Below, piece by piece: positions 2,304 to 62,161 of a stretch of DNA of 64,000 nucleotides. The first letter of the stretch is position 1. Each line of letters opens with the position of its first letter. Under the pieces are notes generated by a model. It did not search any database, was not told the origin of the DNA, and saw only the letters and a program-made list of their open reading frames with translations. The position numbers were made by a program, and so were the translations under genes. This stretch comes from an uncultured bacterium (GTDB taxonomy: Bacteria; Patescibacteriota; Minisyncoccia; UBA6257; GWB1-50-10), in NCBI GenBank assembly GCA_963713955.1, contig OY970216.1:378252-442251 (forward strand), read 5' to 3'.

Positions 2304-3728
2304 GTGCCTGCTTACAACGTAATCTTCTTCGGCGTCATCTTTTTCATCGTCGGACTGTTTTTGGGAAGTCTCCGGGCGGGTTGGCTGATTTTAGGTGCGA
2401 CCCTCATCGGCGCGACCTTTTTCTTTCTTCTCTCTGCCTTTAAAAAAGACAAGAAGTTCATTTGTCTCGCCTTGCTCTCTCCCCTTATCTTCGCTGGCGC
2501 GTTTTATTACACCTTTTTCGACCTACATTTGAAGTCCAAGATCGTGAGTAATGGCGAGGAAGTGGTCATTACCGGGAGAGTAGTCGAGAAACCGTCCTCG
2601 AGTTACGGCGTCGCTTCGGTCGTCGTCGAAACGGATGACGGCGCGAAGCTGCTCTTGCGGCTGCCGAGATATCCGGAAGTGAAATACGGAGAGATCGTTT
2701 CATTTAGAGGAAAAATCGAGGAGCCGGCGAGCGACAGCCGCGGCAATTATTTGCTGAAAGAGGGAATCGTCGGCACTGCCGACTTTCCGGAAGTCGAATC
2801 GGTAGATTGGGGGAAGAAAGACTACAAGGCGTATCTTTTCGATTTGAGAGATAACATCGTCAGTACATTTCAGCGGTCGCTTCCCCCGAAGGAGGGAGCA
2901 TTCCTTTCGGGACTCCTCCTCGGCGAGACAAGCGGTTTTTCCGAAGATTTCAAGAACGACATGAAAGCGAGCGGGACGACTCATCTCGTCGCTCTGTCGG
3001 GTTACAATATCTCCCTCGTCGTCATGGGAGCGATGTTTTTATTTTCTTTTCTCCTGCCGCGCTTCTGGTCTTTCGTTCTGACTTCGATCTCCATATTCTT
3101 GTTCGTCGCGATGACCGGCGCAGAACCGTCCGTCGTCAGAGCGGCCATCATGGGATTTCTCGTCCTTCTCGCCAAGGGGAGCGGGCGGCTTTTCGATTCC
3201 CGGAACGTGGTGGTGCTGACGGCTCTCGTCATGCTTCTCTTGAATCCGCGCCTCCTTTTCTTCGACGTCGGTTTTGAACTTTCGTTTCTGGCATTTCTCG
3301 GCATCGTCTACTTGGAGCCTGCCTTGATTTCAGGTCTCGCGTTTTTTGAAAGGAAAGGATTCGCGCGCTGGCGAGAAAATCTGGCGACCACCTTTTCGGC
3401 TCAAGTTATGGTTCTACCGATTCTCCTCGGCAATTTCGGTTCTTTTTCGCCGGTATCGCTCATATCCAACGTTCTCCTCCTTGGGTTAGTACCGGGAACG
3501 ATGATGCTGGGGTTTGTTACCGCTTCGCTCGGATTTTTGTCGAAACACCTCGCGCAGGTCGGCGGTTGGGTTGTTCTGCCATTCTTGAAGTTTGAGACCG
3601 GAATCATAGAATTTTTCGGCGGGCTTGGCCTTTCGGTGTCGTTCGATTTCGGATGGATCCTTTTCGCGTTGTATTACCTGCTGATTTTGCTCTTTGTGGT
3701 ATGGCGAAAGAAAACTTGCCGGAATTAA
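2304..3728 (+). CDS. comEC: ComEC/Rec2 N-terminal (DUF4131-like + competence membrane domain)
   Basis: Multi-TM protein with the TGTTHLVALSGYNISLV competence-domain signature. The track start is a GTG. Confidence 0.65.
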   Translation: MPAYNVIFFGVIFFIVGLFLGSLRAGWLILGATLIGATFFFLLSAFKKDKKFICLALLSPLIFAGAFYYTFFDLHLKSKIVSNGEEVVITGRVVEKPSSSYGVASVVVETDDGAKLLLRLPRYPEVKYGEIVSFRGKIEEPASDSRGNYLLKEGIVGTADFPEVESVDWGKKDYKAYLFDLRDNIVSTFQRSLPPKEGAFLSGLLLGETSGFSEDFKNDMKASGTTHLVALSGYNISLVVMGAMFLFSFLLPRFWSFVLTSISIFLFVAMTGAEPSVVRAAIMGFLVLLAKGSGRLFDSRNVVVLTALVMLLLNPRLLFFDVGFELSFLAFLGIVYLEPALISGLAFFERKGFARWRENLATTFSAQVMVLPILLGNFGSFSPVSLISNVLLLGLVPGTMMLGFVTASLGFLSKHLAQVGGWVVLPFLKFETGIIEFFGGLGLSVSFDFGWILFALYYLLILLFVVWRKKTCRN

Positions 3729-4603
3729 GGTCGGTCGTACGTTTCTTGGACAACCGCTTTTTCAGGATACTGCCTTTCTTGTTGGTGTTTGCCGTTTTCG
3801 ATGTTTGTCTCTCGCGCTCGATCGGCGTTGCGGGGGAAACGCGGGCCGGCGAGTACTTTCTGCCCGTCGGCCAGGGAGACAGCGAACTTCTCGTTATGGA
3901 TTCCGGGGTCAAGATCTTGATCGACGGCGGCCCGGTTAATTCCCTCGTCGTGCAGAACCTGGATAAAATAATGGCCCCGCATGACAAATATATCGACGTG
4001 GTCATTTTGACGCATCCGGAACTGGATCACTTCGGAGGGCTTGCGGACGTTTTTAAGAGTTACCGGGTCGGCGCTTTTGCGTCTAATGGCCTCGGGGCTG
4101 GGACGGGTGCTTACGGGAATCTGGAAAACCTGATAGCGGTAAGCGGCGCGAAGACCGTGACGCTCGGCGCGGGGGATGCAGTCAAGAACGGGGGAAATTT
4201 AGTAAGAGTTTTATCTCCCCGTCCCGCTGAGATTGCCGATTCCTCCATAAACGACGCAGCTTTGGTTTTGGAAGTTACTTCCGGCGGAATCACTTCTCTT
4301 CTCGCGAGCGATATAAGTTCCAGTGTCGAAAGAAAAATAATCCCGTTCGTGGGGGAAGCGATTGACGTCCTGAAAGTCGCCCATCACGGTTCCAAGGATT
4401 CCTCTTCGGGTGAATTTTTGGCGGCGGTGAAGCCGGAGGTAGCCGTGATAGAGGTCGGGAAGAACTCTTACGGCCACCCCTCGCCCGAGGCGGTCGAGCG
4501 TCTTACCGGAGTTGTGGCGGCGTTATTCAGAACTGATGAGGCAGGGCTTTTGAAAATTTCCCGGAACGAAAACGGACGGCTTGAAGTGTTCAGGATGAAA
4601 TAG
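3701..4603 (+). CDS. comEC: ComEC C-terminal metallo-beta-lactamase domain (separate frame)
   Basis: HPELDHFGG and VAHHGS MBL motifs. The ORF overlaps the upstream comEC part in a different frame, and the start chosen is the internal ATG (MAKENL). Confidence 0.6.
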   Translation: MAKENLPELRSVVRFLDNRFFRILPFLLVFAVFDVCLSRSIGVAGETRAGEYFLPVGQGDSELLVMDSGVKILIDGGPVNSLVVQNLDKIMAPHDKYIDVVILTHPELDHFGGLADVFKSYRVGAFASNGLGAGTGAYGNLENLIAVSGAKTVTLGAGDAVKNGGNLVRVLSPRPAEIADSSINDAALVLEVTSGGITSLLASDISSSVERKIIPFVGEAIDVLKVAHHGSKDSSSGEFLAAVKPEVAVIEVGKNSYGHPSPEAVERLTGVVAALFRTDEAGLLKISRNENGRLEVFRMK

Positions 4604-13342: not shown

Positions 13343-15244
13343 ATGGCGAAGGAGACAACCGATAGGAAAGACAACTTAAGGTTGAGCATCGTCTTCAACG
13401 AAGCGCTGATCATCGTTTTTGTTTTGGCGCTTGTTTCGACGTGGGCTCGCCTCTTGTCAACCGTGGTGGGGAACGATATTCTAATCATCGTTTCGGTCAT
13501 CGGCGTCGTGCCCGTCGCGTGGAGTGCCGCGAAAGCGATCCGGAGGAAAAAAATAACCATAGATCTCTTGGCCTCGATCGCGCTCGCCTTCACGTTCATA
13601 AAAGGGGAGTGGCTGTCGGCTGCTTTCATCAACCTCATGCTCGCTTCGGCCCGGCTCTTCGACAAATTCACGGAAACTCGGACTCGACACGTCATTGAGC
13701 GCCTCATGAAGCTCCGGCCCGAGCGGGTGAAGGTAAAAATCGGCGACAAGTTCGAGGAAGTTCATATAGACAAAGTGAAGGTAGGCGATCTCGTGGTCAT
13801 CGAGTCCGGCGAGCGGGTTCCGGTCGACGGCGTGGTGATCCAGGGGCAGGCGAGCATCGATCAGTCGACCTTGACCGGCGAGAGCGAACACATAACCAAG
13901 AAAGAAGGCGATAAGGTTTACAGCTCGACTCTGAACGATTCCGGATCGCTCGTCGTGAGAGCCGAGAAAGTCGGGGCTGACACTACGCTCTCGAAAATCG
14001 TTTCCCTGGTCGACGAAGCGTCGAGGGCTAAAACGAACATCGAAAGGATAGCCGACCGGTTCAGTTCCTGGTATGTGTTTTTGACGCTCGTCGGATCGGG
14101 CGTCATTTATTTTTTCTCGCGCGATTTGAACGTGGTTTTGAGCGTCCTTTTGGTCACCTGCGCCGACGACATCGCCGTTGCGGTGCCTCTGGGGTTCACG
14201 ATAGCCATAGCCAAAGCCGGCCGCGAAGGAATCGTAGTCAAAGGTGCCGCCATATTTGAGAGGATCAAGAAACTCAAAACATTTGTCACTGACAAGACGG
14301 GTACGCTCACGAAAGGCCTCGCGAAAGTCGTCACGCCGTTCCGTTTCGGAGATATGTCCGAGGAAGAATTCTTGAAAATCGTCGGTACCTGCCAGATGAA
14401 TTCTCGGCATCCGGTGAGTTTGGCGATGCTCAGGTTTTTGAGCGAGAAGAAGATTTCTTATCCGGCGCCCGATGAGTTCAATGAAACGCCGGGAGACGGA
14501 ATCGCCGTGAAAAGAAACGGGAGGCAATTCGTCGCCGGGAAGCTGTCCTTTTTGGAAACCATGGGAATTCGCGCGACCGGTGAGCAGAAGAAAAAGATCA
14601 ATGAGTTTGAGGATAAAGGGTACAGCCTGACTGCCGTCGGATCGGAAGGAAAGCTTTTAGGTCTTATGGTCTTGGAGGACGAGGTGCGGCCGCTCGCGAG
14701 ATTGAGTGTTGCGGAAACGAGGAGACTCGGCGCCGAGCGCTGGATCATGCTCACGGGTGACAACGAGAAGGTGGCGAAAAAAGTCTCGGATGAAGTCGGC
14801 TTGGACGAATACCACGCCGATTTGAAGCCGGAGGACAAACTGGATTTGATAAAAAGCTTCAAAAAGAAATATCAAGGCGATCTTGCGATGATGGGAGACG
14901 GCGTGAATGACGCGGCCGCCTTGGCCCTGGCGGATGTTTCGATCGCCATGGGTGCGATTGGGTCGGACGCGGCGATCGAAGCTGCAGACATCGCCTTGAT
15001 GCACGACAGCGTAAAAAAGATCCCGGAACTCATGCTCTTGAGCAGTAAATCGATGAAAATTATTAACAACAACTTCTGGATCTGGGGGGTTACAAACGCT
15101 CTCGGTTTGATTCTCGTCTTCGGCGGCATTTTGGGTCCTACTGGCGCTGCGGCGTACAACTTCGTGACTGATTTCTTTCCCGTCATGAACGTTTTCGAGA
15201 TATATTTCCTCAACATTAAGCTCAAAGAAAAGATGTTACAATAA
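13343..15244 (+). CDS. P-type cation-transporting ATPase
   Basis: DKTGTLT phosphorylation site and GDGVNDAAALA hinge, with multiple TMs. There is no CPC motif, so specificity is unclear. Confidence 0.8.
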   Translation: MAKETTDRKDNLRLSIVFNEALIIVFVLALVSTWARLLSTVVGNDILIIVSVIGVVPVAWSAAKAIRRKKITIDLLASIALAFTFIKGEWLSAAFINLMLASARLFDKFTETRTRHVIERLMKLRPERVKVKIGDKFEEVHIDKVKVGDLVVIESGERVPVDGVVIQGQASIDQSTLTGESEHITKKEGDKVYSSTLNDSGSLVVRAEKVGADTTLSKIVSLVDEASRAKTNIERIADRFSSWYVFLTLVGSGVIYFFSRDLNVVLSVLLVTCADDIAVAVPLGFTIAIAKAGREGIVVKGAAIFERIKKLKTFVTDKTGTLTKGLAKVVTPFRFGDMSEEEFLKIVGTCQMNSRHPVSLAMLRFLSEKKISYPAPDEFNETPGDGIAVKRNGRQFVAGKLSFLETMGIRATGEQKKKINEFEDKGYSLTAVGSEGKLLGLMVLEDEVRPLARLSVAETRRLGAERWIMLTGDNEKVAKKVSDEVGLDEYHADLKPEDKLDLIKSFKKKYQGDLAMMGDGVNDAAALALADVSIAMGAIGSDAAIEAADIALMHDSVKKIPELMLLSSKSMKIINNNFWIWGVTNALGLILVFGGILGPTGAAAYNFVTDFFPVMNVFEIYFLNIKLKEKMLQ

Positions 15245-15248
15245 AATT

Positions 15249-16430
15249 ATGTCTCGCTTTTCCTTCACCCTCATCGAGCTCCTGGTCGTGATCGCGATCT
15301 TAGCCGTCCTTGCAACCGCCGTCGTCTTGGTCTTGAATCCCGCCCAGCTCTTAGCTCAAGGAAGAGATTCAACCAGGCTCTCTGATCTTTCAGCCCTGAA
15401 TAGTGCCTTATCCCTCTTCCAAGCAGATCAATATACCCAGTCCTTAGGGACTCCGAATACCCTCTACGTATCAGTCCCCGATACCACATCCACCTGTGCC
15501 AATCTGGGACTGTCTTCTCCTCCTATAGGATGGGCCTATCACTGTGTTCCTGCCTCTTCTTCCACCAAGGTAGACGGAACAGGCTGGATTCCCGTGAATC
15601 TCACCCTTATTTCATCAGGATCCCCTTTATCCAAGCTCCCCATAGATCCGACTAACACTTCGTCCTCGAACCTCTACTATGCCTATGTGATGAGCGGAAC
15701 AAATTACCAGTTAACTGCTCACATGGAGTCTCAGAAATATGTCTCCCAGGAAGCTGCTTCCGGAGGAGCCGATCTTGCGATGTACAAGATTGGTTCCAAC
15801 ATTAACATCGCTCCCTTCGTGGGAGGGCTCGTGGGATACTGGTCTTTTGACGAGGGAGGGGGAGCAACCACAACCCTGGATCAATCGGGTTTCGGATCGA
15901 ATGGCTCGTGGTCAGGAACTCAAACGGGGGGGTCCTACTATATAGCGGGTAAGATAGGATTCGCTGGGAATTTCAACGGGAGTGATGACAAGGTTACTGT
16001 TTCGGGAGTTGACCCACTCCTTAACGGATCTCAAGGAACTATTATGGCGTGGGCATATCCTAGCGCCAGTAGTAATGGAAACAACATTTTCGAATCGGTT
16101 GGTCCATCCAGTAACAGATTCTATTTGTCGTATGGTTCTACTTTTCAAGTGTATAGAGGTAACCCCTACACGCAAATAGTGTTAGGTGTTGGGGCACTGA
16201 ACACGTGGTATCATATAGCGCTTTCATGGAACGCGACAACTATGTACGGATATTTCAACGGGAACCTCGTGAACTCGGCAGGTTATACCAATACAAGTAG
16301 TTCGGGAGGGGGCTCCACAATCGGGTCCCAATCACCAGCTTATTTTGCTGGCGAGATTGATGATGTTAGGGTGTACAACCGCGCCCTCTCCGCCGCCGAG
16401 ATAGCCGCGATTTATAATGCACAGAAATAG
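15249..16430 (+). CDS. type IV pilin-like protein fused to LamG/concanavalin-A-like lectin domain (paralog 1)
   Basis: Class-III signal FTLIELLVVIAILAVLA with Glu+5. C-terminal IDDVRVYNRALSAAEI LamG signature. The 5' ~400 bp is near-identical to paralogs at 39290 and 46852. Confidence 0.7.
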   Translation: MSRFSFTLIELLVVIAILAVLATAVVLVLNPAQLLAQGRDSTRLSDLSALNSALSLFQADQYTQSLGTPNTLYVSVPDTTSTCANLGLSSPPIGWAYHCVPASSSTKVDGTGWIPVNLTLISSGSPLSKLPIDPTNTSSSNLYYAYVMSGTNYQLTAHMESQKYVSQEAASGGADLAMYKIGSNINIAPFVGGLVGYWSFDEGGGATTTLDQSGFGSNGSWSGTQTGGSYYIAGKIGFAGNFNGSDDKVTVSGVDPLLNGSQGTIMAWAYPSASSNGNNIFESVGPSSNRFYLSYGSTFQVYRGNPYTQIVLGVGALNTWYHIALSWNATTMYGYFNGNLVNSAGYTNTSSSGGGSTIGSQSPAYFAGEIDDVRVYNRALSAAEIAAIYNAQK

Positions 16431-26066: not shown

Positions 26067-26255
26067 AAAAACTATTCAGCCTCCTCGCTAAAACCCTCGG
26101 TTATCAAAATCCTCCTCGCTCTTCGTCGGAATTATCCGCAAAATATCGAACTCGACCTAAAGGGACTCAAACAGCGATATTTTGCTCATTCCTTCCTCAT
26201 TGCTCGGGGATTTTGAAACAATCTCGAACAAACCGCTCAAAAGCTGAATAGTTTT
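26067..26255 (+). repeat. palindromic intergenic repeat, copy R1
   Basis: Bounded by AAAACTATTCAGC/GCTGAATAGTTTT inverted repeats. The inner stem is GCAAAATATCG...CGATATTTTGC. It shares CTCCTCGCT...TCGTCGGAAT and GCTCATTCCTTCCTCA..GCTCGGGGATTTTGA blocks with 6 other copies. Confidence 0.8.
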
Positions 26256-29847: not shown

Positions 29848-30626
29848 GCAGGGAAAGGAACGTATCCGCCCTGGCTCGCGCCATGGGTGTCTCGCGCTCA
29901 TCGCTCTATTACGTCGCAACGCAGGACAAGAAGGATTGGGCATTAAAGGTCCGGACGGAGGAGGTGCTTCACGAGCATCCCTCATACGGCTCACGCCGAC
30001 TGGCGATTGCGCTCGGCATCGGCAGACCGAGAGCGCAACGGGTCATGCGGATTTACGGCATCAAGCCCTACCGCAGGCATGGGAGAAAATACAGGAAATC
30101 CAAGGCGGAACGGCACTTCCCGAACCTCCTCCTCGGCATTATGCCATCATATGCGAACCATGTCTGGGCGACGGATTTCACGGAGCTTGTCTTTCACGGG
30201 AAGAAGCTGTACGTATCAACGATCCTTAACCTGTTTACGAGGCAACTGATGGGCGTTCATGTGGCGACCCGGAAGGGATCGACGCTCACCATCCAAACTC
30301 TGGCGAACGCGCTCTTCCATTGCCCGCGACCCGTGATCTTCCATTCTGACAACGGGAGGGAATACGAAGCGAAGGCGTTCATCGCTATGCTTGAGCGCTA
30401 CGGCATCACCATCTCCCGCTCACGCCCCGGATCGCCGTGGGAGAACGGATACCAAGAATCTTTCTACGGAAAATTCAAAATGGATCTTGGCGATCCTAAT
30501 CGGTTCAGATCCTTAGGGGAACTTGTGGCGGAGATCTACCGAACGCTTTGGGAGTACAACCATACAAGAATCCACTCCGCTCTCAGGATGCCGCCTTCGG
30601 TGTTTGCAGAGAAGATAGCAGTGTGA
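29844..30626 (+). CDS. IS3 transposase OrfB (DDE integrase core), -1 frame
   Basis: HSDNGREYEAK, WENGYQESFYGKFK and NHTRIHSAL integrase-core motifs. Frame -1 relative to orfA. Confidence 0.8.
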   Translation: MSRERNVSALARAMGVSRSSLYYVATQDKKDWALKVRTEEVLHEHPSYGSRRLAIALGIGRPRAQRVMRIYGIKPYRRHGRKYRKSKAERHFPNLLLGIMPSYANHVWATDFTELVFHGKKLYVSTILNLFTRQLMGVHVATRKGSTLTIQTLANALFHCPRPVIFHSDNGREYEAKAFIAMLERYGITISRSRPGSPWENGYQESFYGKFKMDLGDPNRFRSLGELVAEIYRTLWEYNHTRIHSALRMPPSVFAEKIAV

Positions 30627-30969
30627 GAGAATGAAAAAACGACGAGAAAACTTGTCGAGTGACTGTCTAAAGAAACCTATCCATCACACCGGCCCAATCA
30701 GTACGAAATAAGAAGTATTTCAAGTCCGACAAGATGGGTCACCGCCACTTGTGGTCAAAGACCCAATGGGTTGAGTTTCTAAAAAACTACTATAAGATCA
30801 AAGAAGCAAGAGTGGTTAGAGCGATTCGAAAAGATGACCTGGTTATAGCTCTTACTAAAAAGTAGATATTATTTTAACTAATCGGAATTTGTCCCTTCCG
30901 TCATTTTCTCCCACTGGCCTGACCCCCATATATTAGACACAAAGGTCGAAGTCAATATACCCTTGTGTC

Positions 30970-31227
30970 ATGAAGAAAACATATCGCACTGCTCCCGAGG
31001 TGAAGGAGCAGATATTGAAGAGAATCAAGGAGGAAGGGATCCCGGTCGTCCAGGCCGCCAAGGAACACGGTCTGAATCCCGCCACCATATACAACTGGCT
31101 GGGAAGGGGCGTGAAAGGCACCCCCACGATCGGTGAACTCGTCCGCCTCAAGCGCCAGAACGAAGAGCTCCTCGCCCTCGTGGGCGAGCTCACCCTGGCC
31201 TCCTCACGCACTCAAAAAAAGCGTTGA
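30970..31227 (+). CDS. IS3 transposase OrfA
   Basis: 85 aa, identical to the 61072-61329 product. Confidence 0.8.
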   Translation: MKKTYRTAPEVKEQILKRIKEEGIPVVQAAKEHGLNPATIYNWLGRGVKGTPTIGELVRLKRQNEELLALVGELTLASSRTQKKR

Positions 31228-32033
31228 TCAAAAAGCAGAAGAAGACGAAGTGGGAACTTGCCCGTGAACTCGGCCTCTCCCGCGCCTCCCTCTACTATGT
31301 CTCGAAACAATCGCCCAAGGATTGGTCGCTCAAGGAAAGGATCATATCAGTCTTGAGAGACCATCCTTCATACGGCTTCAGAAGAGTGGCTTTGGAGCTC
31401 AAGATCAACAAAAAAAGAGCCCAACGGGTGATGAGGCTCTTCGGGATGAAGGCATATCGGAGAAGGGGCAGAAGGCCAAGGAAAACGGGCTTCTCGAGTA
31501 TCCTGTATCCCAATCTCCTTCAGAAGAACTTCCCCAAAGGATTGAACGATATCTGGGTGGCGGACTTCACGTACATCCCGTACCAAGGGAAGTTCCTGTA
31601 TCTCGCCACCGTGATGGATTTGTTTGCGAGGGAGATCGTGGGCTGGGCCGTGATGAATACCCACTCGGTGCCTCTGGTCCTCCAGGCACTCTTCTCCGCG
31701 GCGGAACATCATCCGAGACCCAACATCTTCCACTCGGACAACGGAAGGGAGTATGGCTCAAGGATCTTCACCGGAGCTCTTTTGAACCTCGGCGTCAGGA
31801 TATCGAGATCGAGGAAGTCATCGCCATGGGAGAACGGCTACCAGGAGTCCTTCTACTCCCAGTTCAAGGTGGATCTGGGCGATCCGGAGAGGTTCAAATC
31901 GCTGGGAGAGCTGGTCTACGAGATCCATCGCCTGGTCTGGGACTACAACCACCGGAGAATCCACTCCGCCCTCAGGATGCCGCCTGCACTGTTCTCGAAT
32001 CGCTACCAGAAACTTGTCGAAAAAGTGTCTTAA
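31224..32033 (+). CDS. IS3 transposase OrfB (-1 frame)
   Basis: HSDNGREYGSR...WENGYQESFYSQFK...NHRRIHSAL. Identical to the 61326-62135 product. Confidence 0.8.
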   Translation: MIKKQKKTKWELARELGLSRASLYYVSKQSPKDWSLKERIISVLRDHPSYGFRRVALELKINKKRAQRVMRLFGMKAYRRRGRRPRKTGFSSILYPNLLQKNFPKGLNDIWVADFTYIPYQGKFLYLATVMDLFAREIVGWAVMNTHSVPLVLQALFSAAEHHPRPNIFHSDNGREYGSRIFTGALLNLGVRISRSRKSSPWENGYQESFYSQFKVDLGDPERFKSLGELVYEIHRLVWDYNHRRIHSALRMPPALFSNRYQKLVEKVS

Positions 32034-32078
32034 CTTTGGGGGTCTTTACAATCAGATAGAAAAAGAATCCTTAATGCG

Positions 32079-33652: not shown

Positions 33653-33718
33653 GCAGTTTTCTTTCATCTTTACACGAACAAGAATCACTTGTCTTTTGAG
33701 CGAGTTGTTCGAGGCTGT

Positions 33719-33857
33719 TAAAAAATCCCCGAGCGATGAGGAAGGAATGAGCACAATAGCGAATGTTTGAATCCCGCTGGTTTCATTAATGAAACCAAGG
33801 TTGAGTTCGCTATTGTGCGACTTTATTTCGATGAAGAGCGAGGAGGATTTTAGCAAC
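33719..33857 (-). repeat. palindromic intergenic repeat, copy R2 (inverted relative to R1)
   Basis: Reverse complement of the GCTCATTCCTTCCTCATCGCTCGGGGATTTT block. Inner stem GCACAATAGCG...CGCTATTGTGC with a GGTTTCATTAATGAAACC insert shared with copy R6. Confidence 0.8.
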
Positions 33858-33900
33858 CGAGAATTGCAGCGAAGAAGATAAGTGGTTCTTGTTCTTGCTC

Positions 33901-36696: not shown

Positions 36697-37704
36697 ATGT
36701 TTACCAGGAAAATTGGAATAGACTTGGGAACGACGAATACGCTGGTCTTTTTGCCAAAGAAGGGGATCGTCATCAACGAACCGACGGTCGTGGCCTTGAG
36801 CAAACCTTCGAACACCGTTTTGGCCGTCGGATCCGAGGCCAAAGAAATGGTCGGCCGGACGCCGGACGACATCGTAACCTACCGGCCGCTCAAAGACGGC
36901 GTGATCGCCGAATATTACATCACTGAATCGATGCTCAAGTATTTCATCCGGAAGAGCGTCGGTTCCTTTAATGTTTGGCGACCCGATGTGGTCGTTTCGG
37001 TTCCGGCGGGCATCACGTCAACGGAATACCGTGCCGTCATCAATGCCGCCAAGGAAGCCGGCGCCAAAGAAACCTACCCGGTCAAGGAACCAATCCTCGC
37101 CGCTCTCGGGGCGGGCATTCCGATCCATTCCGCCGAAGGGAATATGATCGTGAACATCGGCGGAGGGACGACTGAGGTGGCGGTCATCTCTCTCGGGGGA
37201 ATTGTCACGTGGCACAGTCTTCGGGTTGCCGGCAACAAGTTTGATCAGTCGATCAGCGATTACATAAAGAAGAAATACAATCTGGCGATCGGGGAGACGT
37301 CTGCCGAAAACATCAAGATAAGCATAGGAACGGCATTGCCCTCGAAGAATAAAATCGAAATGAAAGTGAGAGGAAGAGATCTCGGATCGGGACTGCCCAA
37401 GGATCTCCTCATCAATTCGAATGAAATAGCCGAGGCGATCAATCAGTATCTCGTTGAGATCATGAGCGCCGTCCAGGCGGTTTTTAACGTGACGCCGCCG
37501 GAGCTCACGGCCGACATCATGGAAAAGGGAATCATTCTCTCGGGAGGCAGTGCTCAGCTCCGCGACCTCGAGGAGTTTTTCAAGAGATCGCTTGGCGTTT
37601 CCGCATACGTCGCCGAAAATCCCATTCTCTGCGTGGCGAAAGGCACCGCGATGGTCTTAAGTCACCTCGACGTCTACAAGCGAACGTTGCTCAACAAGAG
37701 ATAA
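36697..37704 (+). CDS. mreB: rod shape-determining protein MreB
   Basis: IGIDLGTTNTLVF...EPTVVAL and GGGTTEVAVISLGG actin-fold motifs. Confidence 0.85.
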   Translation: MFTRKIGIDLGTTNTLVFLPKKGIVINEPTVVALSKPSNTVLAVGSEAKEMVGRTPDDIVTYRPLKDGVIAEYYITESMLKYFIRKSVGSFNVWRPDVVVSVPAGITSTEYRAVINAAKEAGAKETYPVKEPILAALGAGIPIHSAEGNMIVNIGGGTTEVAVISLGGIVTWHSLRVAGNKFDQSISDYIKKKYNLAIGETSAENIKISIGTALPSKNKIEMKVRGRDLGSGLPKDLLINSNEIAEAINQYLVEIMSAVQAVFNVTPPELTADIMEKGIILSGGSAQLRDLEEFFKRSLGVSAYVAENPILCVAKGTAMVLSHLDVYKRTLLNKR

Positions 37705-39087: not shown

Positions 39088-39235
39088 CTCTAAAATCCTC
39101 CTCGCTTCTCGTCGGAATCAAGCCGCAAAATATCGAACTCAACCTCGTCCGCCAGCTGGCGGAGGCGGATTCGGGATTCAAACATGCGATATTTTGCTCA
39201 TTCCTTCCTCAGGGCTCGGGGATTTTGACGAGATC
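39088..39235 (+). repeat. palindromic intergenic repeat, copy R3
   Basis: AAAATCCTCCTCGCTTCTCGTCGGAAT head. GCAAAATATCG...CGATATTTTGC stem. GCTCATTCCTTCCTCAGGGCTCGGGGATTTTGA tail. Confidence 0.8.
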
Positions 39236-39271: not shown

Positions 39272-39280
39272 TGTTATAAT
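39272..39280 (+). promoter_or_regulatory. extended -10 (TGTTATAAT) upstream of pilin paralog 2
   Basis: TGnTATAAT consensus 10 bp before the ATG at 39290. Confidence 0.4.
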
Positions 39281-39289
39281 AAGAAAACA

Positions 39290-40513
39290 ATGACCTCTCG
39301 CCAATCTTTCACCCTGATTGAGCTCCTCGTAGTCATCGCGATCTTGGCGATCCTCGCGACCGCCGTCGTCCTCGTCTTGAATCCTGCCCAGCTTCTTGCC
39401 CAGGGAAGAGATTCCACGAGACTCTCTGATCTTTCCGCTCTGAACAGCGCCCTCTCCTTATTTCAGGCTGATGCCTATACCCAATCCTTAGGGACTCCTA
39501 ACACAGTCTATATATCAATCCCTGATTCATCATCCACCTGTGGGGACCTGGACCTGCCTGCCTTAGGAGGAGGCTGGGCCTATCACTGTGTTCCAAGCTC
39601 TTCCTCAACAAGAGTAGACGGAACAGGCTGGATTCCCGTGAATCTCACCCTTATTTCATCAGGATCCCCTTTATCCAAGCTCCCCATAGACCCCGTGAAT
39701 ACCACAAGCACTGGACTCTACTATACCTACGTATCAGGAGGCTCCTATGCCTTATCCAGTGCCTTGGAATCACAGAAGTACCTTGTATCCACCGCAGCAA
39801 CAGATAATGGCTATGATCCAGGAAGATACGAAACAGGTTCTGACCTTTCCCTTATTGGAAGAAGTGAAGGATTGGTAGGATGGTGGCCCCTCGATGGAGA
39901 CCCAGGGGACAGGAGCGGGAATGGGAATGGGGGGACGCCGATTAACAATCCCGCGTGGACTACGGGGAAGATAAATCAAGCCATTAGTCTTAACGGATCA
40001 AACAATAACTTGGGGAATTACCTCAATATCCCAAGTGTGAGCAATCTCAATATAACTAACTCAGTTACCCTTGCGGCATGGGTTAACAGAAATACTAGCG
40101 GCGCGGATTTACAGGGGGTAATAACGAAATCTAGTCCTGCAACGAGAGCCTACAGCCTCACAACCCAATATAATACCCCAACGTATCAAGTACAGTTGGC
40201 GATCAACGGCACGTTTTGTCCCTACATTGCTCCCACCAATTATAACCAATGGCATTACGTTGCCGGCGTTTACGACGGGACAAATGAAAACGTTTACTAT
40301 GACGGTGTTTTGGTCCAGACGTGTCCTAAAACCGGTTCGATTAACGTCACGAGCGATCCTCTTTATATTGGACTTTACAATTATGCTATCGGCACTGAAG
40401 GTTCGTCTTGGTATGGATATCGCCCCTTCGGCGGCCTGATCGATGATGCCCGTGTCTATAATCGCGCCCTCTCAGCAGCTGAGATCCAAGCTATCTACAA
40501 CGCACAGAAATAG
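39290..40513 (+). CDS. type IV pilin-like/LamG fusion (paralog 2)
   Basis: MTSRQS|FTLIELLVV signal and a LamG C-terminus (IDDARVYNRALSAAEIQAIYNAQK). The ORF-track start at 39194 runs through repeat R3 and is rejected. Confidence 0.7.
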   Translation: MTSRQSFTLIELLVVIAILAILATAVVLVLNPAQLLAQGRDSTRLSDLSALNSALSLFQADAYTQSLGTPNTVYISIPDSSSTCGDLDLPALGGGWAYHCVPSSSSTRVDGTGWIPVNLTLISSGSPLSKLPIDPVNTTSTGLYYTYVSGGSYALSSALESQKYLVSTAATDNGYDPGRYETGSDLSLIGRSEGLVGWWPLDGDPGDRSGNGNGGTPINNPAWTTGKINQAISLNGSNNNLGNYLNIPSVSNLNITNSVTLAAWVNRNTSGADLQGVITKSSPATRAYSLTTQYNTPTYQVQLAINGTFCPYIAPTNYNQWHYVAGVYDGTNENVYYDGVLVQTCPKTGSINVTSDPLYIGLYNYAIGTEGSSWYGYRPFGGLIDDARVYNRALSAAEIQAIYNAQK

Positions 40514-40677
40514 GAAGTAAAGCACCAAATCTCAAGCTCCAAATCCCAAATAATGACCGAAATTCCAAAGAGCGTGTTTAGAATTTGATATTTTGAATTT
40601 ATTTGTTATTTGGAATTTGGATTTTGGGATTTCATCTCACTTGTTACTAGTTACTGATTGTTTGTATAATCTAAAGG

Positions 40678-41727
40678 ATGGAGATAGTGCTCGTCATTTT
40701 GGGTCTCGGCATACTGATTTTAGGCCATGAGTTCGGCCATTTTTCGGTTGCGCGGATCTTGAAAATGAAAGTCGAGGAATTCGGCATAGGGTTCCCCCCG
40801 AAGCTTTTCGGCAAGAAAGCCAAGTCCGGAATTGTCTACAGCGTGAACGCTCTCCCGTTCGGCGGATTTGTAAAGCTGTACGGAGAGGATGATAACAAGA
40901 GCGGTGACCCTGAAGCGTTTCTCAATAAACCTTTTCGCAAGAAAGCGTTTGTTGTCCTTGCGGGCGTCATCGCGAATTTCATCCTTGGATGGCTCCTCCT
41001 GAGCGTCGTTTTGATCGCGGGGACGCCGGAGCACCTAATGATCGCAAGCGTCGAGAATAATTCTCCTGCCGCCGAAGCGGGGCTCAAAGAAGGCGATATC
41101 GTAAAACAGATCACTATGGGTGGCAAGTCGCTTTCCGATCCAATCATCGACAACGATTTCGTGAATCTCGTGAAAGGTTCGAGTGAAGCGGCCGTCTCGC
41201 TCAGCATTCTCCGCGGCACGCAAAGTTTCAACGTGGCGTTGGATAAGAGGTTGAGTCCGCCGCCGGGACAAGGGGCCATCGGCATAGGCTTAGTCGATAT
41301 CGGCGCGGCGCCGGAGCCGTTCTTCAAGAGTTTCTCTGATGCCGCTTTAGAAACGGTTAATTTTTCCTGGCTCATTTTGAGCGGACTCTGGACGCTTCTC
41401 ACAGGGCTTTTCACGAATCCAAGCGTCATAAAGGGAGTGGCGGGGCCCGTTGGCATCGTGGCCTTAGCGTCAGAGGCTTCTGCGATCGGCTTTGCATACC
41501 TGGTCCAGCTTCTCGCGCTCATATCTATAAACTTAGCGGTCCTGAACCTCATTCCGTTCCCGGCATTGGATGGCGGGAGATTCCTCGTTTTCCTCATTGA
41601 GAAAATCAGGGGCAAGAAGATTTCTTCGAAGATCCAACTTGCCGTGAACGGGATCGGGTTCGCGGCGCTCGTGCTCCTCATGATCTTCGTCACGTTTAAC
41701 GATGTCAGAAACCTCATCGTCCACTGA
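40678..41727 (+). CDS. rseP: site-2 (RIP) zinc metalloprotease RseP
   Basis: HEFGHF HExxH in TM1, a PDZ segment, and a LDGG motif. Confidence 0.85.
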   Translation: MEIVLVILGLGILILGHEFGHFSVARILKMKVEEFGIGFPPKLFGKKAKSGIVYSVNALPFGGFVKLYGEDDNKSGDPEAFLNKPFRKKAFVVLAGVIANFILGWLLLSVVLIAGTPEHLMIASVENNSPAAEAGLKEGDIVKQITMGGKSLSDPIIDNDFVNLVKGSSEAAVSLSILRGTQSFNVALDKRLSPPPGQGAIGIGLVDIGAAPEPFFKSFSDAALETVNFSWLILSGLWTLLTGLFTNPSVIKGVAGPVGIVALASEASAIGFAYLVQLLALISINLAVLNLIPFPALDGGRFLVFLIEKIRGKKISSKIQLAVNGIGFAALVLLMIFVTFNDVRNLIVH

Positions 41728-42773: not shown

Positions 42774-42877
42774 TATTCTCTGGCGAGCATATATATTCCG
42801 TAAGCTTCTTCGAAGCACATATACTCGCGGTGTGGGTATGGAGCAGGCAAAGGATATGAAAGTGCTCTCGAACGATT

Positions 42878-43027
42878 CTGCCGGAAGGCGTTTCAAAATC
42901 CCCGAACGATGAGGAGAGAATAAGCAAAATATCGCTGTTTGAGTCCCTTCAGGTCGAGTTCGATATTTTGCGGATAATTCCGACGAAGCGGTCGGAGGAT
43001 TTTAATGCCTGGAGGTTTAAGTGAGAG
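42878..43027 (-). repeat. palindromic intergenic repeat, copy R4 (reverse orientation)
   Basis: TTCAAAATCCCCGAACGATGAGGAGAGAATAAGCAAAATATCG...CGATATTTTGC...CGACGAAGCGGTCGGAGGATTTT. Confidence 0.8.
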
Positions 43028-43080: not shown

Positions 43081-44334
43081 ATGCGGCAGTCGGAATTACT
43101 CTTCAAAACGCAGAAAACGTACCCCAAGGACGAAGTGGCGGTGAACGCCCAGCTCCTCATAAAAGCAAATTTCGTCCATAAGCTCATGGCGGGCGTTTAT
43201 TCTTACCTCCCTCTCGGTTTTAGAGTCAGGGAAAAGATAATGAAAATTGTGAGGGAGGAAATGGACGCTCTCGGCGCCGCCGAGATGCTTATGCCTTCGC
43301 TCCATCCGAAGTCGGCGTGGGAAGCGAGCGGCCGGTGGGAAGGCTTGTCGAAGATCATGTACCAGTTTCAGGACAATTCCGGGCGGGACGTGGGGCTCGG
43401 AGCGACCCATGAAGAAATCGTGGCGCTCCTCGCGCAGGGCCTCTTGGATTCCTACGCGGATCTCCCGAAGTACGTGTATCAAATTCAAACCAAGTTCCGC
43501 GACGAACCTCGGGCGAAATCGGGAATTCTCCGCGGGCGGGAGTTTACCATGAAAGACATGTACAGTTTCCACGCGGACGAAGCGTCGCTTGGAGATTTTT
43601 ATGAAAAATCGAAGAGGGCGTATTTGAACGTTTACGAGCGGTGCGGACTCCGGGCGTACGTGACGGAAGCCTCGGGAGGGGATTTTTCCAAAAGCTATTC
43701 GCACGAGTTCATGGTGGAAACGCCGGCGGGCGAAGACGAAACGTATCTCTGCCGCCTCTGCGGTTTCGCGCGGAACAAGGAAATCGCCGATTTCAAGAAA
43801 GGCGACCGGTGCCCCTCGTGCCAGAGCGGGGTCCTGGAAAAGGTGAAAACCGTCGAGGTAGGGAACATTTTCAAGCTGGGCACCAAGTATTCGGAAGCCG
43901 CTGGCTTGAATTTCAGGGACAAGAAAGGAAATCTGAAGCCTGTCGTCATGGGATCGTACGGCATCGGGATTGAACGGCTCATGGGAACCGTCGTTGAAGT
44001 TCACCACGACGAAAAAGGTATTATCTGGCCCTTTGAAATAGCGCCTTATAAAACCCATCTGTTGATTATCGGTGAGCCAAATGAGGAACTTCAAAAATTC
44101 GCCGATGACGTATACAATGAGCTTTGCGGGGGAGGAATAGGAACTCTCTACGACGATCGGGTGAAAATCTCGGCAGGAGAAAAATTTTACGACGCCGATT
44201 TGATCGGCATTCCCTGGAGAATTGTCGTGAGCGACAAAATGATGGTTCAGAAGAAGGTAGAAGTCAAAAGGAGGAATGAAAAGGATTCGAAAGTTCTCGC
44301 GGTGAAGGAGTTTATTAAGGGTTTGCAGCCATGA
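43081..44334 (+). CDS. proS: prolyl-tRNA synthetase (short form, Zn-ribbon insertion)
   Basis: Motif 2 FRDEPRAKSGILRGREFTMKDMYSFH and the class II core. The start is the ATG after repeat R4; the track start at 43021 lies inside the repeat. Confidence 0.85.
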   Translation: MRQSELLFKTQKTYPKDEVAVNAQLLIKANFVHKLMAGVYSYLPLGFRVREKIMKIVREEMDALGAAEMLMPSLHPKSAWEASGRWEGLSKIMYQFQDNSGRDVGLGATHEEIVALLAQGLLDSYADLPKYVYQIQTKFRDEPRAKSGILRGREFTMKDMYSFHADEASLGDFYEKSKRAYLNVYERCGLRAYVTEASGGDFSKSYSHEFMVETPAGEDETYLCRLCGFARNKEIADFKKGDRCPSCQSGVLEKVKTVEVGNIFKLGTKYSEAAGLNFRDKKGNLKPVVMGSYGIGIERLMGTVVEVHHDEKGIIWPFEIAPYKTHLLIIGEPNEELQKFADDVYNELCGGGIGTLYDDRVKISAGEKFYDADLIGIPWRIVVSDKMMVQKKVEVKRRNEKDSKVLAVKEFIKGLQP

Positions 44335-45359
44335 TAATAAAAAAAGTGATAGGCGTTGATCTCGGAACCGATACGACCCAGGTATACTTGAAGGGCGTCG
44401 GCATTGTCGTGAACGAACCCTCGATCGTCGCCTTCAACAATCGGACAAACCGGATCGTGGCGGTAGGGTGGGAAGCAAAACGGATGCTCTCCCGCACTCC
44501 CTCCCATGTGACGGCGCTCCGGCCCATCACGAACGGGATCATAGCCGATTTCGACATGGCGAAGGAAATGATCCAGCGGTTTCTGAGAACCAAAATGCTC
44601 CCTTGGTCGTGGTTCACGGAAACGATCGTGAGCGTTCCGACCAACTTGACCGAAGTCGAGCGGAAATCGGTCGAAGATTTGTTCAAGGAGGTCGGCGTGA
44701 GCAAGGTGTATCTCGTCGAAGAGCCTATCGCCGCCGCCTTGGGGAGCGGACTCGACATCATGAAACCCACGGCGCATCTCGTCGTCGACGTGGGAGCCGG
44801 CACTACCGACATGGCCATCATTTCGTTGAATGGCATCGTCGTTTCCAAAAGACTGAAAATTGCCGGCGATTATTTCAATCAGGAAATCATGAAGGGAGTT
44901 AAGGATGAATTGAAGCTTTATATCGGCGAGCCGACGGCTGAGGAAATAAAAATGGCCGTTGGTTCGGCAGTCCCGCAGGCCGAGAAGCTCGACGTCAGCA
45001 TTCGCGGCAGGGACGCGGTAAGCGGGCTTCCCCGCGAGACCCTCGTGAGGGACACCCAAGTCCGTTATTGGCTTGCCAAGTCTCTCAAAATGATCGTTGA
45101 AACGCTTAAGGAACTCATAGATATAACGCCGCCGGAGCTCGCCGGTGACATTTACCGGAACGGCATAGACGTCTGCGGCGGCGGCAGTGCTCTCCGCGGC
45201 ATAAACCAGATGTTTGAGAAGGAAATAGGCGTCAACGTCCACGTGGTTGACGAACCGCTTCTCTGCGTCGCGCGGGGAGTGGGCCTCATCGCCGAGAACG
45301 CTTCTTTTTACGGCAACGTTCTTGAAAGCTTTTCCTCTCCTTCGTCCATCAAGCTATGA
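44331..45359 (+). CDS. mreB: MreB paralog (second actin-like rod-shape protein)
   Basis: IGVDLGTDTTQVY...EPSIVAF and DVGAGTTDMAIISLNG motifs. 342 aa. Confidence 0.8.
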   Translation: MIIKKVIGVDLGTDTTQVYLKGVGIVVNEPSIVAFNNRTNRIVAVGWEAKRMLSRTPSHVTALRPITNGIIADFDMAKEMIQRFLRTKMLPWSWFTETIVSVPTNLTEVERKSVEDLFKEVGVSKVYLVEEPIAAALGSGLDIMKPTAHLVVDVGAGTTDMAIISLNGIVVSKRLKIAGDYFNQEIMKGVKDELKLYIGEPTAEEIKMAVGSAVPQAEKLDVSIRGRDAVSGLPRETLVRDTQVRYWLAKSLKMIVETLKELIDITPPELAGDIYRNGIDVCGGGSALRGINQMFEKEIGVNVHVVDEPLLCVARGVGLIAENASFYGNVLESFSSPSSIKL

Positions 45360-46524: not shown

Positions 46525-46810
46525 ACGAAGCAACCTCAAGCCCCTTCTCGCTAAAACCTCCGGATGCAAAAATTCTCCTCGCTCATCCTGGGAAACCGGC
46601 GAAATTTATCAAACTCAACCTAAAGGGATTCAGACAATGATAAATTTCTGTTTCCTCACGTCTTCGCTCAGGAATTTTTATGCATCCTCCGGCAAATCGC
46701 TCAAAGGGACTTGAGGTTGCTTCTTTGTGCAAGAATATTATGGGAAGATTCATTTTGCTAAAACTCGGGGATTTTGAGACGCCTTCCGGAAAAGCGTTCG
46801 AGAGGGTTTT
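46525..46810 (+). repeat. palindromic intergenic repeat, copy R5 (largest copy)
   Basis: Nested IRs CAACCTCAAGCCCC/GGGACTTGAGGTTG and CCGGATGCAAAAATT/AATTTTTATGCATCCTCCGG. The inner stem GAAATTTATCA...TGATAAATTTC covaries with other copies. Confidence 0.8.
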
Positions 46811-46851
46811 GGGTTACTTCTTTCTTTTTGTTTTAGAGTATAATTGAATAC

Positions 46852-48183
46852 ATGAATCCCGGAAGCAGAGTAAGCTTTACCCTGATCGAGCTCCTGGTCG
46901 TGACCCCGATACGAAAGGCGTTCCACGCCTTCATACGGGGTAAATCGCCATCCTCTTCTCCCAGAGCTTCTTTTACCTTGATTGAATTGCTTGTGGTGAT
47001 TGCAATCCTCGCCGTCTTAGCCACCGCCGTCGTCTTGGTCTTGAACCCTGCCCAGCTATTGGCCCAGGGAAGAGATTCAACTCGTTTGTCTGATCTTTCA
47101 GCCCTGAATAGTGCCCTCTCCCTCTTCCAAGCAGATCAATATACCCAGTCCTTAGGGACTCCAAATACCCTCTATATATCCGTTCCCGATACCACGTCCA
47201 CCTGTGCCAATCTGGGACTGTCTTCTCCTCCTATAGGATGGGCCTATCACTGTGTTCCAAGCTCTTCCTCAACAAGAGTAGACGGAACAGGCTGGATTCC
47301 CGTGAATCTTACCCTCCTATCATCAGGATCCCCTTTATCCAAGCTCCCGATAGACCCCGTGAATACCACAAGCACAGGATTCTACTATACCTACGTATCA
47401 GGAGGCTCCTATGCCTTATCCAGTGCCTTGGAATCACAGAAATACCTCAGTTCTACTGCATCCCAGGACCAAGGCTATGATCCTGGGAAGTATGAGATCG
47501 GTTCTGACCTATCCCTTATTGGAAGGAGTGAGGGATTAGTAGGATGGTGGCCTTTGGATGGGAGTCCCAATGATCAGAGCGGAAACAACAACAATGGGAC
47601 GTGGTTTGGTTCCATGATCGGAGGTTCTTACTATACGGGAGGGAAGATCAATCAGGCCGGGAACTTCAATGGGACGGATGACTACGTGAGTGTGGGGAAT
47701 TCACCAATTTTTGATATGGGTACAGGAAATATGACCATTAGCGCCTGGTTGAGTTCTTACACAGATCCTAGCAATTATGGTAATGTTGTTGGCAAGATAA
47801 GCTGGAACGGAGTTCTTGGTTACGGTATTGTAAATGCCTATGATACTGGCACCAACTGTGTTATGGGGTATATGGCGAAGAACGGCATCAGCGATCGTGT
47901 GGTAAACGATTCAACTGCCTATTGCCCATCGTCTGGGTCCTGGCACCTTTATACCACCGTGTTTAATCGCGTGTCTAACACGTTAGCTCTCTATGTTGAT
48001 GGGAGTTTGGTGAATAGTAAGAGTATTGCCGGTTATTCCGGCGTCGGCTTTACGAACACAGCTGCTGTTACGATCGGCGTCTATGATAATAATTACCTAA
48101 AATCGAATATCGACGATGTCCGCATCTACAACCGCACCCTCTCCGCCGCGGAGATTCAAGCTATCTACAACGCCCAGAAGTAA
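46852..48183 (+). CDS. type IV pilin-like/LamG fusion (paralog 3) with duplicated N-terminal FTLIELLVV segment
   Basis: MNPGSRVS FTLIELLVV TPIRKAFHAFIRGKSPSSSPRAS FTLIELLVVIAILAVLA. The 5' ~650 bp is near-identical to paralog 2. LamG C-terminus. Confidence 0.65.
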   Translation: MNPGSRVSFTLIELLVVTPIRKAFHAFIRGKSPSSSPRASFTLIELLVVIAILAVLATAVVLVLNPAQLLAQGRDSTRLSDLSALNSALSLFQADQYTQSLGTPNTLYISVPDTTSTCANLGLSSPPIGWAYHCVPSSSSTRVDGTGWIPVNLTLLSSGSPLSKLPIDPVNTTSTGFYYTYVSGGSYALSSALESQKYLSSTASQDQGYDPGKYEIGSDLSLIGRSEGLVGWWPLDGSPNDQSGNNNNGTWFGSMIGGSYYTGGKINQAGNFNGTDDYVSVGNSPIFDMGTGNMTISAWLSSYTDPSNYGNVVGKISWNGVLGYGIVNAYDTGTNCVMGYMAKNGISDRVVNDSTAYCPSSGSWHLYTTVFNRVSNTLALYVDGSLVNSKSIAGYSGVGFTNTAAVTIGVYDNNYLKSNIDDVRIYNRTLSAAEIQAIYNAQK

Positions 48184-48261: not shown

Positions 48262-48482
48262 GAAAGGGAGGAAACCGAGCCCCTCTCGAGCGATTTGCCG
48301 GAAGGCGTTTCAAAATCCCCGAGCGATGAGGAAGGAATGAGCACAATAGCGAATGTTTGAATCCCGCTGGTTTCATTAATGAAACCAAGGTTGAGTTCGA
48401 TATTGTGCGATGCAATTCCGACGAAGCGGTCGGAGGATTTTGACGCCTGGAGGTTTAAGTGAGAGGGGGCTCGGTTTCCTCT
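48262..48482 (-). repeat. palindromic intergenic repeat, copy R6
   Basis: Bounded by a GGAAACCGAGCCCCTCTC / GAGAGGGGGCTCGGTTTCC 18-bp IR. Inner stem GCACAATAGCG...CGATATTGTGC with a GGTTTCATTAATGAAACC insert. Confidence 0.8.
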
Positions 48483-54255: not shown

Positions 54256-54261
54256 ATTTCG

Positions 54262-61038: not shown

Positions 61039-61071
61039 ACACAAAGGTCGAAGTCAATATACCCTTGTGTC

Positions 61072-62135: not shown

Positions 62136-62161
62136 CTTTGGGGGTCTTTACACAGAAAAAT

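Follow-up and report, generated by a model that had tools for sequence, protein, structure and literature searches.

The 64,000-nt stretch of contig OY970216.1 analysed here (positions 378,252 to 442,251 of the assembly of an uncultured Patescibacteriota bacterium, hereafter the window) carries three genes, g1, g2 and g3, encoding modular type IV pilins in which a pilin module, the carrier, is followed by a laminin G-like (LamG) domain, the head. We think it probable that these genes belong to a repertoire of lectin-headed pilins whose carrier evolves in concert by gene conversion and whose LamG heads are old and stable paralogs. A first-pass annotation of the window had attributed the conserved ends and variable cores of the three genes to cassette-type recombination or gene conversion. 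Conversion between paralogs is borne out by blocks of low synonymous divergence and by 3SEQ-like and pairwise homoplasy index (PHI) tests; the equation of conserved ends and a variable core with cassette exchange is not. The genes and their modules are the following.

15249-16430, + strand: g1 (protein P0010, 393 aa), complete open reading frame (ORF), modular type IV pilin
15264-15824, + strand: pilin module of g1 (about residues 6-192), with the leader MSRFS and the mature N-terminus FTLIELLVV
15825 to the end of the gene, + strand: LamG jelly-roll of g1, starting at GLVGYW (residue 193)
39290-40513, + strand: g2 (protein P0008, 407 aa from its ATG), complete ORF, modular pilin
39305-39868, + strand: pilin module of g2, with the LamG domain from 39869
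46852-48183, + strand: g3 (protein P0001, 443 aa), complete ORF, modular pilin with an abnormal N-terminal extension of 40 aa
46972 onwards, + strand: pilin module of g3, with the LamG domain from 47533

Architecture of the three pilins

The three ORFs lie where the first-pass annotation had placed them, and each combines the prepilin N-terminus and the LamG-like domain that it had described. The prepilin N-terminal methylation motif (PF07963) was detected in g1-g3 with 25.1-32.1 bits (cut-off 21.2) and TIGR02532 with 21.7-22.8 bits (cut-off 16.3); matches to GspG/PilA N-termini in NCBIfam were sub-threshold only. The prepilin N-terminus, MSRFS followed after the cleavage site by FTLIELLVVIAILAVLATAVVLVL, presents a short, positively charged leader, a cleavage site, Phe at +1, Glu at +5 and about 20 hydrophobic residues. 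The window contains four matches to a degenerate pattern coding for FTLIELLVV, with none expected, the fourth being a duplicate within g3. The Laminin_G_3 domain (PF13385) is present at full length in all three proteins (69.5-84.6 bits, cut-off 27.6; E-values from 1e-19 to 1e-24), covering model positions 1-4 through 151 of 151. One further candidate, the TafC family fimbrial protein of haloarchaeal Tat-fimbriae (NF052521), was rejected, its scores being 20.6-39.7 bits for a cut-off of 410, with the LamG part alone matching.

The AlphaFold2 (AF2) model of g1, built on 113 homologues, reached a predicted local distance difference test score (pLDDT) of 92.6 and a predicted template modelling score (pTM) of 0.87. 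It consists of a 53-residue helix (residues 8-60), a small beta head, a beta-sandwich (194-376) and a C-terminal helix (382-392). The long N-terminal helix on a beta head corresponds to the 'lollipop' fold of pilins, the beta-sandwich strands to a jelly-roll, and the model thus agrees with the LamG jelly-roll on a pilin stalk anticipated in the first-pass annotation. Two cysteines, C83 and C99, are invariant across the 113 homologues. A Foldseek search of the PDB with the g1 model retrieved 5hon_A (AbnA domain 4; E-value 3e-12, template modelling score 0.76 on the target), together with a trans-sialidase lectin domain and the Hc-N domain of clostridial neurotoxins (BoNT/TeNT), again in line with a jelly-roll. 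The Pfam domains, the AF2 model and the lectin-like Foldseek matches therefore identify g1-g3 as pilin carriers bearing a LamG/concanavalin A (ConA)-like lectin jelly-roll, that is, as modular type IV pilins, in which a pilin module is joined to a C-terminal domain that is not specific for pili.

A role as displayed adhesins or lectins is plausible by analogy with PilC of Streptococcus sanguinis and with PilX1 and PilX2 of Nanosynbacter lyticus TM7x, and the LamG heads likely bind glycans. The carrier, with its class III signal peptide, alpha1 helix and disulfide-bonded beta head, would allow processing and assembly into a pilus, and the deeply different heads probably supply a repertoire of ligand specificities, likely for glycans, for attachment to a host or partner.

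Gene conversion is confined to the pilin module

The 5' parts of g2 and g3 are 82.5% identical in DNA over 605 nt, those of g1 and g3 89.1% over 366 nt and those of g1 and g2 81.7% over 398 nt. Similarity stops at or just past GLVG(W/Y)W, the first LamG strand, and reaches through GLVGWWPLDG in the g2-g3 pair. The first-pass annotation had thus correctly delimited these regions and had overstated their resemblance in calling them near-identical. Two further members of the family could be compared as DNA, P5 (P0005 on locus L081) and P3 (P0003 on locus L082), both from an ENA assembly. P5 matches P0121 of the source contig at 398 of 400 residues and P3 matches P0123 at 390 of 391, without any substitution in LamG; the substitutions between P0005 and P0121 are all in the pilin module, where the paralogs are polymorphic at the same positions. 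The near-identity to P0121 and P0123 places P5 and P3 in the same population as the window, and the mosaic structure of P5 described below is therefore present in two assemblies. The segments concerned are these.

15282-15646, + strand: stretch of g1 with 89% DNA identity to 46990-47354 of g3 and up to 100% to P5, including a 203-nt exact run; gene-conversion tract
39305-39904, + strand: stretch of g2 with 82.5% DNA identity to 46969-47569 of g3, holding a block with a synonymous divergence of 0.24 (alignment columns 151-180)
46852-46971, + strand: 5' recombination scar of g3, with ATG, leader and a first FTLIELLVV copy at 46876-46902
16356-16430, + strand: C-terminal LamG motif IDDVRVYNRALSAAEIAAIYNAQK and stop codon of g1 (equivalents at 40439-40513 in g2 and 48109-48183 in g3)

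Blocks of the pilin module differ in synonymous divergence (dS, Nei-Gojobori), with values between 0.24 and about 1.3, and in which paralog is the nearest. In columns 91-150, g1 is close to g3 (dS 0.25), with values of 0.81 for g1-g2 and 0.65 for g2-g3; in columns 151-180, it is g2 that is close to g3 (dS 0.24), with 0.71 for g1-g3. In the LamG core, synonymous sites are saturated. The P5 gene is also a mosaic: its DNA equals that of g1 (100% identity) in columns 1-75, the first ~75 aligned codons, which include the 203-nt exact run, and is 97-99% identical to g3 for about 120 codons (columns 61-180) and 87% identical to g2 in columns 166-210. A 3SEQ-style excursion test gave permutation p<=5e-5 for g3, which is first g1-like and then g2-like, and for P5, and a PHI-type test on 63 informative sites gave p=2e-4, 1126 of the 1953 site pairs being incompatible. 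Gene conversion between paralogs is therefore real and confined to the pilin module, and its tracts extend no further than the start of LamG or slightly beyond it, the point at which homology ceases.

The 5' end of g3 keeps a recombination scar. Its first FTLIELLVV copy resembles g1 and P5 at 25-26 of 27 nt; a 69-nt in-frame spacer follows, containing a hairpin (46904-46940), and then a second, P3-like N-terminus (25 of 27 nt). An independent Logan contig (L084) is 100% identical to the g3 locus up to position 46920 and confirms the first part of the scar. This duplicated 5' stub and the size of the family on the source contig, at least 14 members, go beyond what the first-pass annotation had noticed.

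The middles of the three genes give no BLASTN match to one another and cannot be aligned as DNA. The statement that they are unrelated does not hold for the proteins, each of which matches the whole Pfam model: the LamG cores of g1 and g3 share 33.7% identity over 169 aa (E-value 6e-15) and those of g2 and g3 27.9% over 165 aa (2e-8), g1-g2 similarity being barely detectable pairwise. Judged by these alignments, the middles are homologous, anciently diverged LamG cores.

The conserved 3' end likewise exists as protein and not as DNA. The last 24 residues of g1-g3 are 87-92% identical, and all three proteins end with the sequence IDDxR(V/I)YNR(A/T)LSAAEI(A/Q)AIYNAQK that had been reported for them. 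Among the 21-22 identical residues of the motif, 9, 9 and 11 are encoded by identical codons in the three pairs, for 8.6, 8.3 and 8.5 expected from the codon usage of the window; the proportion of synonymous differences (pS) is 0.62-0.88, and exact DNA matches within the last 120 nt reach at most 8-17 nt. The 113 homologues, which come from many genomes, have the same motif as their consensus, and it recurs in unrelated solved LamG_3 domains (GLIDELRIYEGAL in 5hon and GMIDDFRIFDRALSADEI in 4qvs). Codon identity at chance level, short exact runs and a family-wide motif thus make the 3' flank a structural signature and no recombination anchor: the similarity reflects protein-level conservation of the last beta-strand and helix common to LamG_3 domains. 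This evidence separates true conversion between paralogs from a domain-wide motif that mimics a conserved cassette flank.

The similarity of the 5' parts results from strong purifying selection combined with repeated conversion between paralogs within the pilin module. Conversion keeps the carrier uniform, presumably compatible with one assembly machine, and the LamG cores are, on this reading, neither hypervariable nor an actively shuffled cassette.

The repertoire and its possible histories

Protein searches place at least 14 full-length paralogs on the 804,691-bp source contig (P0001, P0002, P0004, P0006, P0007, P0008, P0009, P0010, P0011, P0015, P0021, P0043, P0121 and P0123), plus fragments. 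With genes of about 1.2 kb, the family occupies roughly 2% of the DNA of this contig. The C-terminus of P0043 is disrupted, P0148 contains a frameshift and P0196 is a fragment of 106 aa on the same contig, found in a search with the pilin module alone, which matched mostly short proteins, did not retrieve the paralogs and otherwise yielded stand-alone pilins. The paralogs combine alternative blocks in various ways, with a disulfide loop of the type TTSTCANLGLSSPPIG, NASSTCGSLGLPTPPTG or SSSTCGDLDLPALGGG and two types of linker. Beyond this genome, a full-length query matches more than 1,300 database proteins, and the pilin head without its generic helix matches 2,069 clusters at 50% identity, most of them of 390-430 aa. 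The named matches are Patescibacteria (Paceibacterota, Jorgensen-, Wolfe-, Lipton- and Colwellbacteria), and the closest relative in a scan of genome contigs is 72% identical.

The identities of the two modules were compared across a set of 56 pilin-LamG genes, taken from the window and from related loci. Orthologue pairs between two related genomes, BP9 and c996, show similar values for the pilin module (0.88-0.90) and for LamG (0.84-0.93), and the head is therefore not intrinsically hypervariable or fast-evolving. Many other pairs, including all within-genome pairs here, have pilin identities of 0.8-0.98 for LamG identities of only 0.28-0.51. Module identities decoupled in this way mean that either the stalk was homogenised or the heads were exchanged.

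Exchange of heads, in which a resident pilin gene would have received a new LamG module as a whole, through illegitimate or micro-homology recombination or through lateral acquisition, appears unlikely to be the main explanation. It would fit the cross-genome pairs L011/L013 and L054/L059, in which the pilin modules are 0.94-0.98 identical and the LamG domains 0.28-0.36, the unrelated head types borne by the same carrier in relatives, and the similarity between g3, P0002 and P3, which ends sharply about 45 codons past the start of LamG. However, it leaves unexplained the internal mosaic of the pilin module with its alternating nearest paralogs, and the unrelated downstream flanks of the dispersed loci make each copy look like an old, separate insertion. 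Head swapping and homogenisation of the stalk are not mutually exclusive.

Cassette variation of the pilE/pilS kind, in which heads, alone or with stalk segments, would often be copied from donor copies into one or a few expression loci via 5' and 3' anchors, switching adhesin specificity or antigenicity, we consider improbable. Comparable systems are Neisseria pilE/pilS and Helicobacter pylori babA/babB, adhesin or surface protein families in which gene conversion acts on conserved segments and produces mosaic genes. These systems exchange the variable ligand-binding or antigenic part, and the pilS copies are promoterless and 5'-truncated. The present family resembles them in its mosaic genes and in the use of shared conserved segments as conversion substrates; unlike them, it exchanges the conserved carrier, the heads stay in place and the copies look complete. 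Mosaic tracts with sharp breakpoints near the module junction, truncated or frameshifted copies that could act as donors (P0196, P0043 and P0148) and the 5' scar of g3 all speak for cassettes. On the other hand, DNA homology flanks the variable segment on one side only, with exact runs of 32-203 nt in the 5' part of the paralogs and of 8-17 nt at the 3' end, and it is the pilin module, not the surroundings of the LamG core, that holds the recombination signal. Silent partial copies, which the first-pass annotation had proposed to look for, are absent from the window: beyond the family genes, a tblastn search with 12 family proteins gave a single match at an E-value below 0.01, of 29 aa, to the upstream extension of P0009. 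The 106-aa fragment P0196 is encoded elsewhere in the genome, and g1, g2, g3, P5 and P3 all look complete. Shuffled middles, for which the annotation had proposed to compare strains, were not seen either, the LamG heads being the same in two assemblies at two loci (P0005/P0121 and P0003/P0123), as far as consensus assemblies, in which rare variants would be missed, can tell. Short-read Logan contigs of the same strain (L083-L087, from runs ERR12035932 and ERR10755942) are also 100% identical to the window where they overlap it.

The extended N-terminus of P0009 itself (residues 2-30) is over-extended and matches positions 2157-2243 of the window (- strand) with 62% identity over 29 aa (E-value 2e-5), probably because the gene caller translated a shared upstream sequence element.

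All five copies available as DNA have an ATG, a leader peptide and a -10-like box, and therefore look independently expressible, as judged from their upstream sequences. In g2, g3, P5 and P3, the box, TGTTATAAT or TATAAT, lies 5-13 nt upstream of the ATG. The boxes of the window, read by eye, are the following.

39272-39280, + strand: extended -10-like box TGTTATAAT, 9 nt before the ATG of g2
46839-46844, + strand: TATAAT before g3
15234-15242, + strand: TGTTACAAT before g1, inside the end of the upstream ATPase gene

Consensus scans for sigma-70 promoters and terminators around g2 and g3 did not exceed the shuffled expectation, and no full -35/-10 promoter was called there.

A history without recombination, with ancient duplicates in which purifying selection would act far more strongly on the pilin module than on the LamG head, is very improbable. 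The low ratio of nonsynonymous (dN) to synonymous divergence in the stalk (dN 0.03-0.2 versus dS 0.24-1.3) is in its favour, and selection alone explains the alpha1-helix region, where dS is about 1 despite 51-52 of 54 identical residues. Nevertheless, purifying selection on the protein cannot yield 203-nt exact runs, nor blocks with dS of 0.24 beside blocks with dS above 0.65 and switching partners, and the synonymous data contradict it. Targeted hypermutation of the LamG core by a diversity-generating retroelement (DGR) or similar system, which six related genomes direct at the FGE-sulfatase/C-type-lectin head of the same carrier (with a reverse transcriptase and paired variable and template repeats, see below), is hardly credible as the source of the unrelated-looking middles of g1-g3, since no repeat in the window matches their 3' halves, the two assemblies differ by zero LamG substitutions, and the cores differ by indels and along their whole length rather than in a short A-biased tract.

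We thus favour concerted evolution of the carrier under stable heads, and several points weigh against this reading. The nucleotide tests cover five genes (g1, g2, g3, P5 and P3) and not the other nine paralogs, and the 3SEQ signal of g3 comes partly from the region of the different g1 linker, itself a replacement, which inflates the statistic. All assemblies are metagenomic, and the short-read contigs break inside the pilin module: the four Logan contig ends (39604, 39842, 46920 and 15617) all fall there, as expected for a multi-copy module. The second assembly corroborates two loci, P5 and P3; the linkage of 5' ends to heads otherwise rests on the long contig. As for the proteins, the cleavage site has Ser at -1 instead of the canonical Gly, a scan of window ORFs revealed no genes for the type IV pilus machinery, and processing of g1-g3 by a prepilin peptidase, their incorporation into pili and their position at the tip or in the shaft are predicted. 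The g3 prepilin, with a predicted 40-aa leader containing a hydrophobic stretch, may be mis-processed or non-functional, and independent expression of the copies is likewise predicted from their upstream boxes.

The second assembly gave no information on synteny, since L081 and L082 are different loci, and the Logan contigs are identical to the window and break inside pilin genes.

Genomic setting and related display systems

The three genes are single insertions amid housekeeping genes. A P-type ATPase gene ends 4 nt upstream of g1, with doxX and alaS downstream; g2 lies between frr and rseP, and g3 has mreB, mreC and an mreD-like gene on one side and pbp2 on the other. Their downstream flanks are unrelated and the loci dispersed. 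In at least two related genomes (L015 and L046), too, pilin genes adjoin mreB, and the window itself contains two mreB paralogs less than 8 kb apart (36697-37704 and 44331-45359). Another pilin-like gene (55102-55875) encodes a protein of 257 aa without LamG, starting with MKKG and, after the cleavage site, FSLIEMLIYIAVFSIV (N_methyl, 26.6 bits). Its neighbours (53623-55068 and 56119-57870) have no Pfam match, and it could belong to a minor-pilin cluster.

A family of intergenic repeats of about 140-190 nt, forming long imperfect palindromes (RNA fold of -81.8 kcal/mol, z = -6.5), is found near several pilin genes and elsewhere in the window:

26080-26243, 33693-33861 and 42865-43027, unstranded: palindromic repeat copies
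39090-39228, unstranded: palindromic repeat copy directly upstream of g2
46543-46806, unstranded: palindromic repeat copy or copies upstream of g3
48281-48465, unstranded: palindromic repeat copy downstream of g3
L081, 9316-9434: palindromic repeat copy downstream of P5 in the second assembly

A variant subfamily exhibits compensatory changes on both arms, and the repeat has no match in Rfam. Its functional tie to the pilin genes is putative. We rejected the idea that the repeats flanking g3 delimit an invertible segment, the repeat itself being palindromic, which makes alternating orientation meaningless.

Other features of the window concern the genome more generally. TATAAT boxes precede start codons by 5-13 nt at 39272-39292, 40665-40680, 46839-46854 and 57847-57869, which suggests, from the sequence, leaderless or very short-leader mRNAs in this organism. 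A ComEC-like competence channel is encoded at 2304-4603 by two overlapping ORFs (Competence and DUF4131 domains, then a metallo-beta-lactamase domain). An insertion sequence (IS) with an rve-type (IS3-like) integrase is present at 30915-32050 and 61017-62152, in two copies of 1,136 nt that are 99.9% identical and exactly 30,102 nt apart, with a partial third copy at 30431-30596. Nearly all long ORFs are on the + strand, and Rfam and tRNA scans of the whole window revealed no tRNA, rRNA or Rfam family at the gathering threshold.

The architecture of g1-g3 is known. The combination of IPR012902 with PF13385 has been catalogued, PF13385 being among the commonest additional modules of modular pilins, with examples in the Candidate Phyla Radiation (CPR; Raynaud et al., 2021; PMC8179133), and PilC of S. 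sanguinis is a proven lectin-bearing minor pilin (Shahin et al., 2023; PMC9934059). Like PilC and other modular pilins, g1-g3 join a class III signal peptide and pilin module, through a short linker, to a ConA-like/LamG lectin module. PilC differs in that it is encoded by a single gene within a pil operon and has an additional Ig-like module and an unusually short pilin part, whereas the present family comprises at least 14 paralogs, dispersed and with very different heads, whose full pilin modules of 190 aa evolve in concert; a profile search of the PDB gave no sequence match to the PilC structure. In the episymbiont N. lyticus TM7x, PilX1 (jelly-roll, L-type-lectin-like) and PilX2 (beta-propeller) are minor pilins, PilX2 is required for efficient host binding, and glycans are implicated (PMC11623550). 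They too are CPR episymbiont pilins with C-terminal lectin-like domains, but belong to another CPR lineage and occur as one copy each within pilus loci, without reported multigene repertoire or conversion between paralogs. In the literature on CPR, pilins and LamG/concanavalin, we found no description of the multi-copy, mosaic organisation of this family, which adds modest novelty to a known architecture.

In relatives, the same carrier of ~185 aa is found as stand-alone pilins (~190-200 aa), sometimes in tandem, and fused to FGE-sulfatase/C-type-lectin-like, Fib_succ_major, NHL beta-propeller, Gly_rich_2 and unassigned heads. A DGR signature is present in 6 of the 11 FGE-sulfatase fusions (L014, L034, L038, L049, L052 and L053), all in related Paceibacteria genomes. 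The variable repeat (VR) corresponds to the last ~114 nt of the fusion gene and the template repeat (TR) lies 0.45-1.2 kb downstream; 88 of 89 VR/TR mismatches have A in the TR, and ORFs for YMDD reverse transcriptases follow in four of the six loci (L034, L038, L049 and L052). By these sequence hallmarks, the six loci are textbook DGRs. G-type pilin domains are mentioned only as rare DGR targets in a survey (PMC11661182). The family studied here thus shares its carrier with DGR variable proteins, and differs from DGR targets in that the LamG heads of g1-g3 have no template repeat or reverse transcriptase nearby. The presence of DGR-mutagenised heads on the same carrier suggests that the latter serves Paceibacteria-type CPR bacteria as a general platform on which variable binding domains are displayed.

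A bolder possibility is active recombinational switching, in which at least 14 heads, truncated donors and shared stalk homology would re-assort stalks and, rarely, heads, changing the host glycans bound; the palindromic repeats beside g2, g3 and P5 might then mark the mobile units or favour their movement. We regard such switching as doubtful. If true, it would be the recombinational counterpart of the DGR mutagenesis used by sister lineages on the same carrier.

The CPR/Patescibacteria depend on attachment to hosts, and how they recognise them is largely unknown. At least 14 pilins that differ mainly in their lectin-like head, in an episymbiont-type genome of ~0.8 Mb, provide a concrete candidate set for host recognition.

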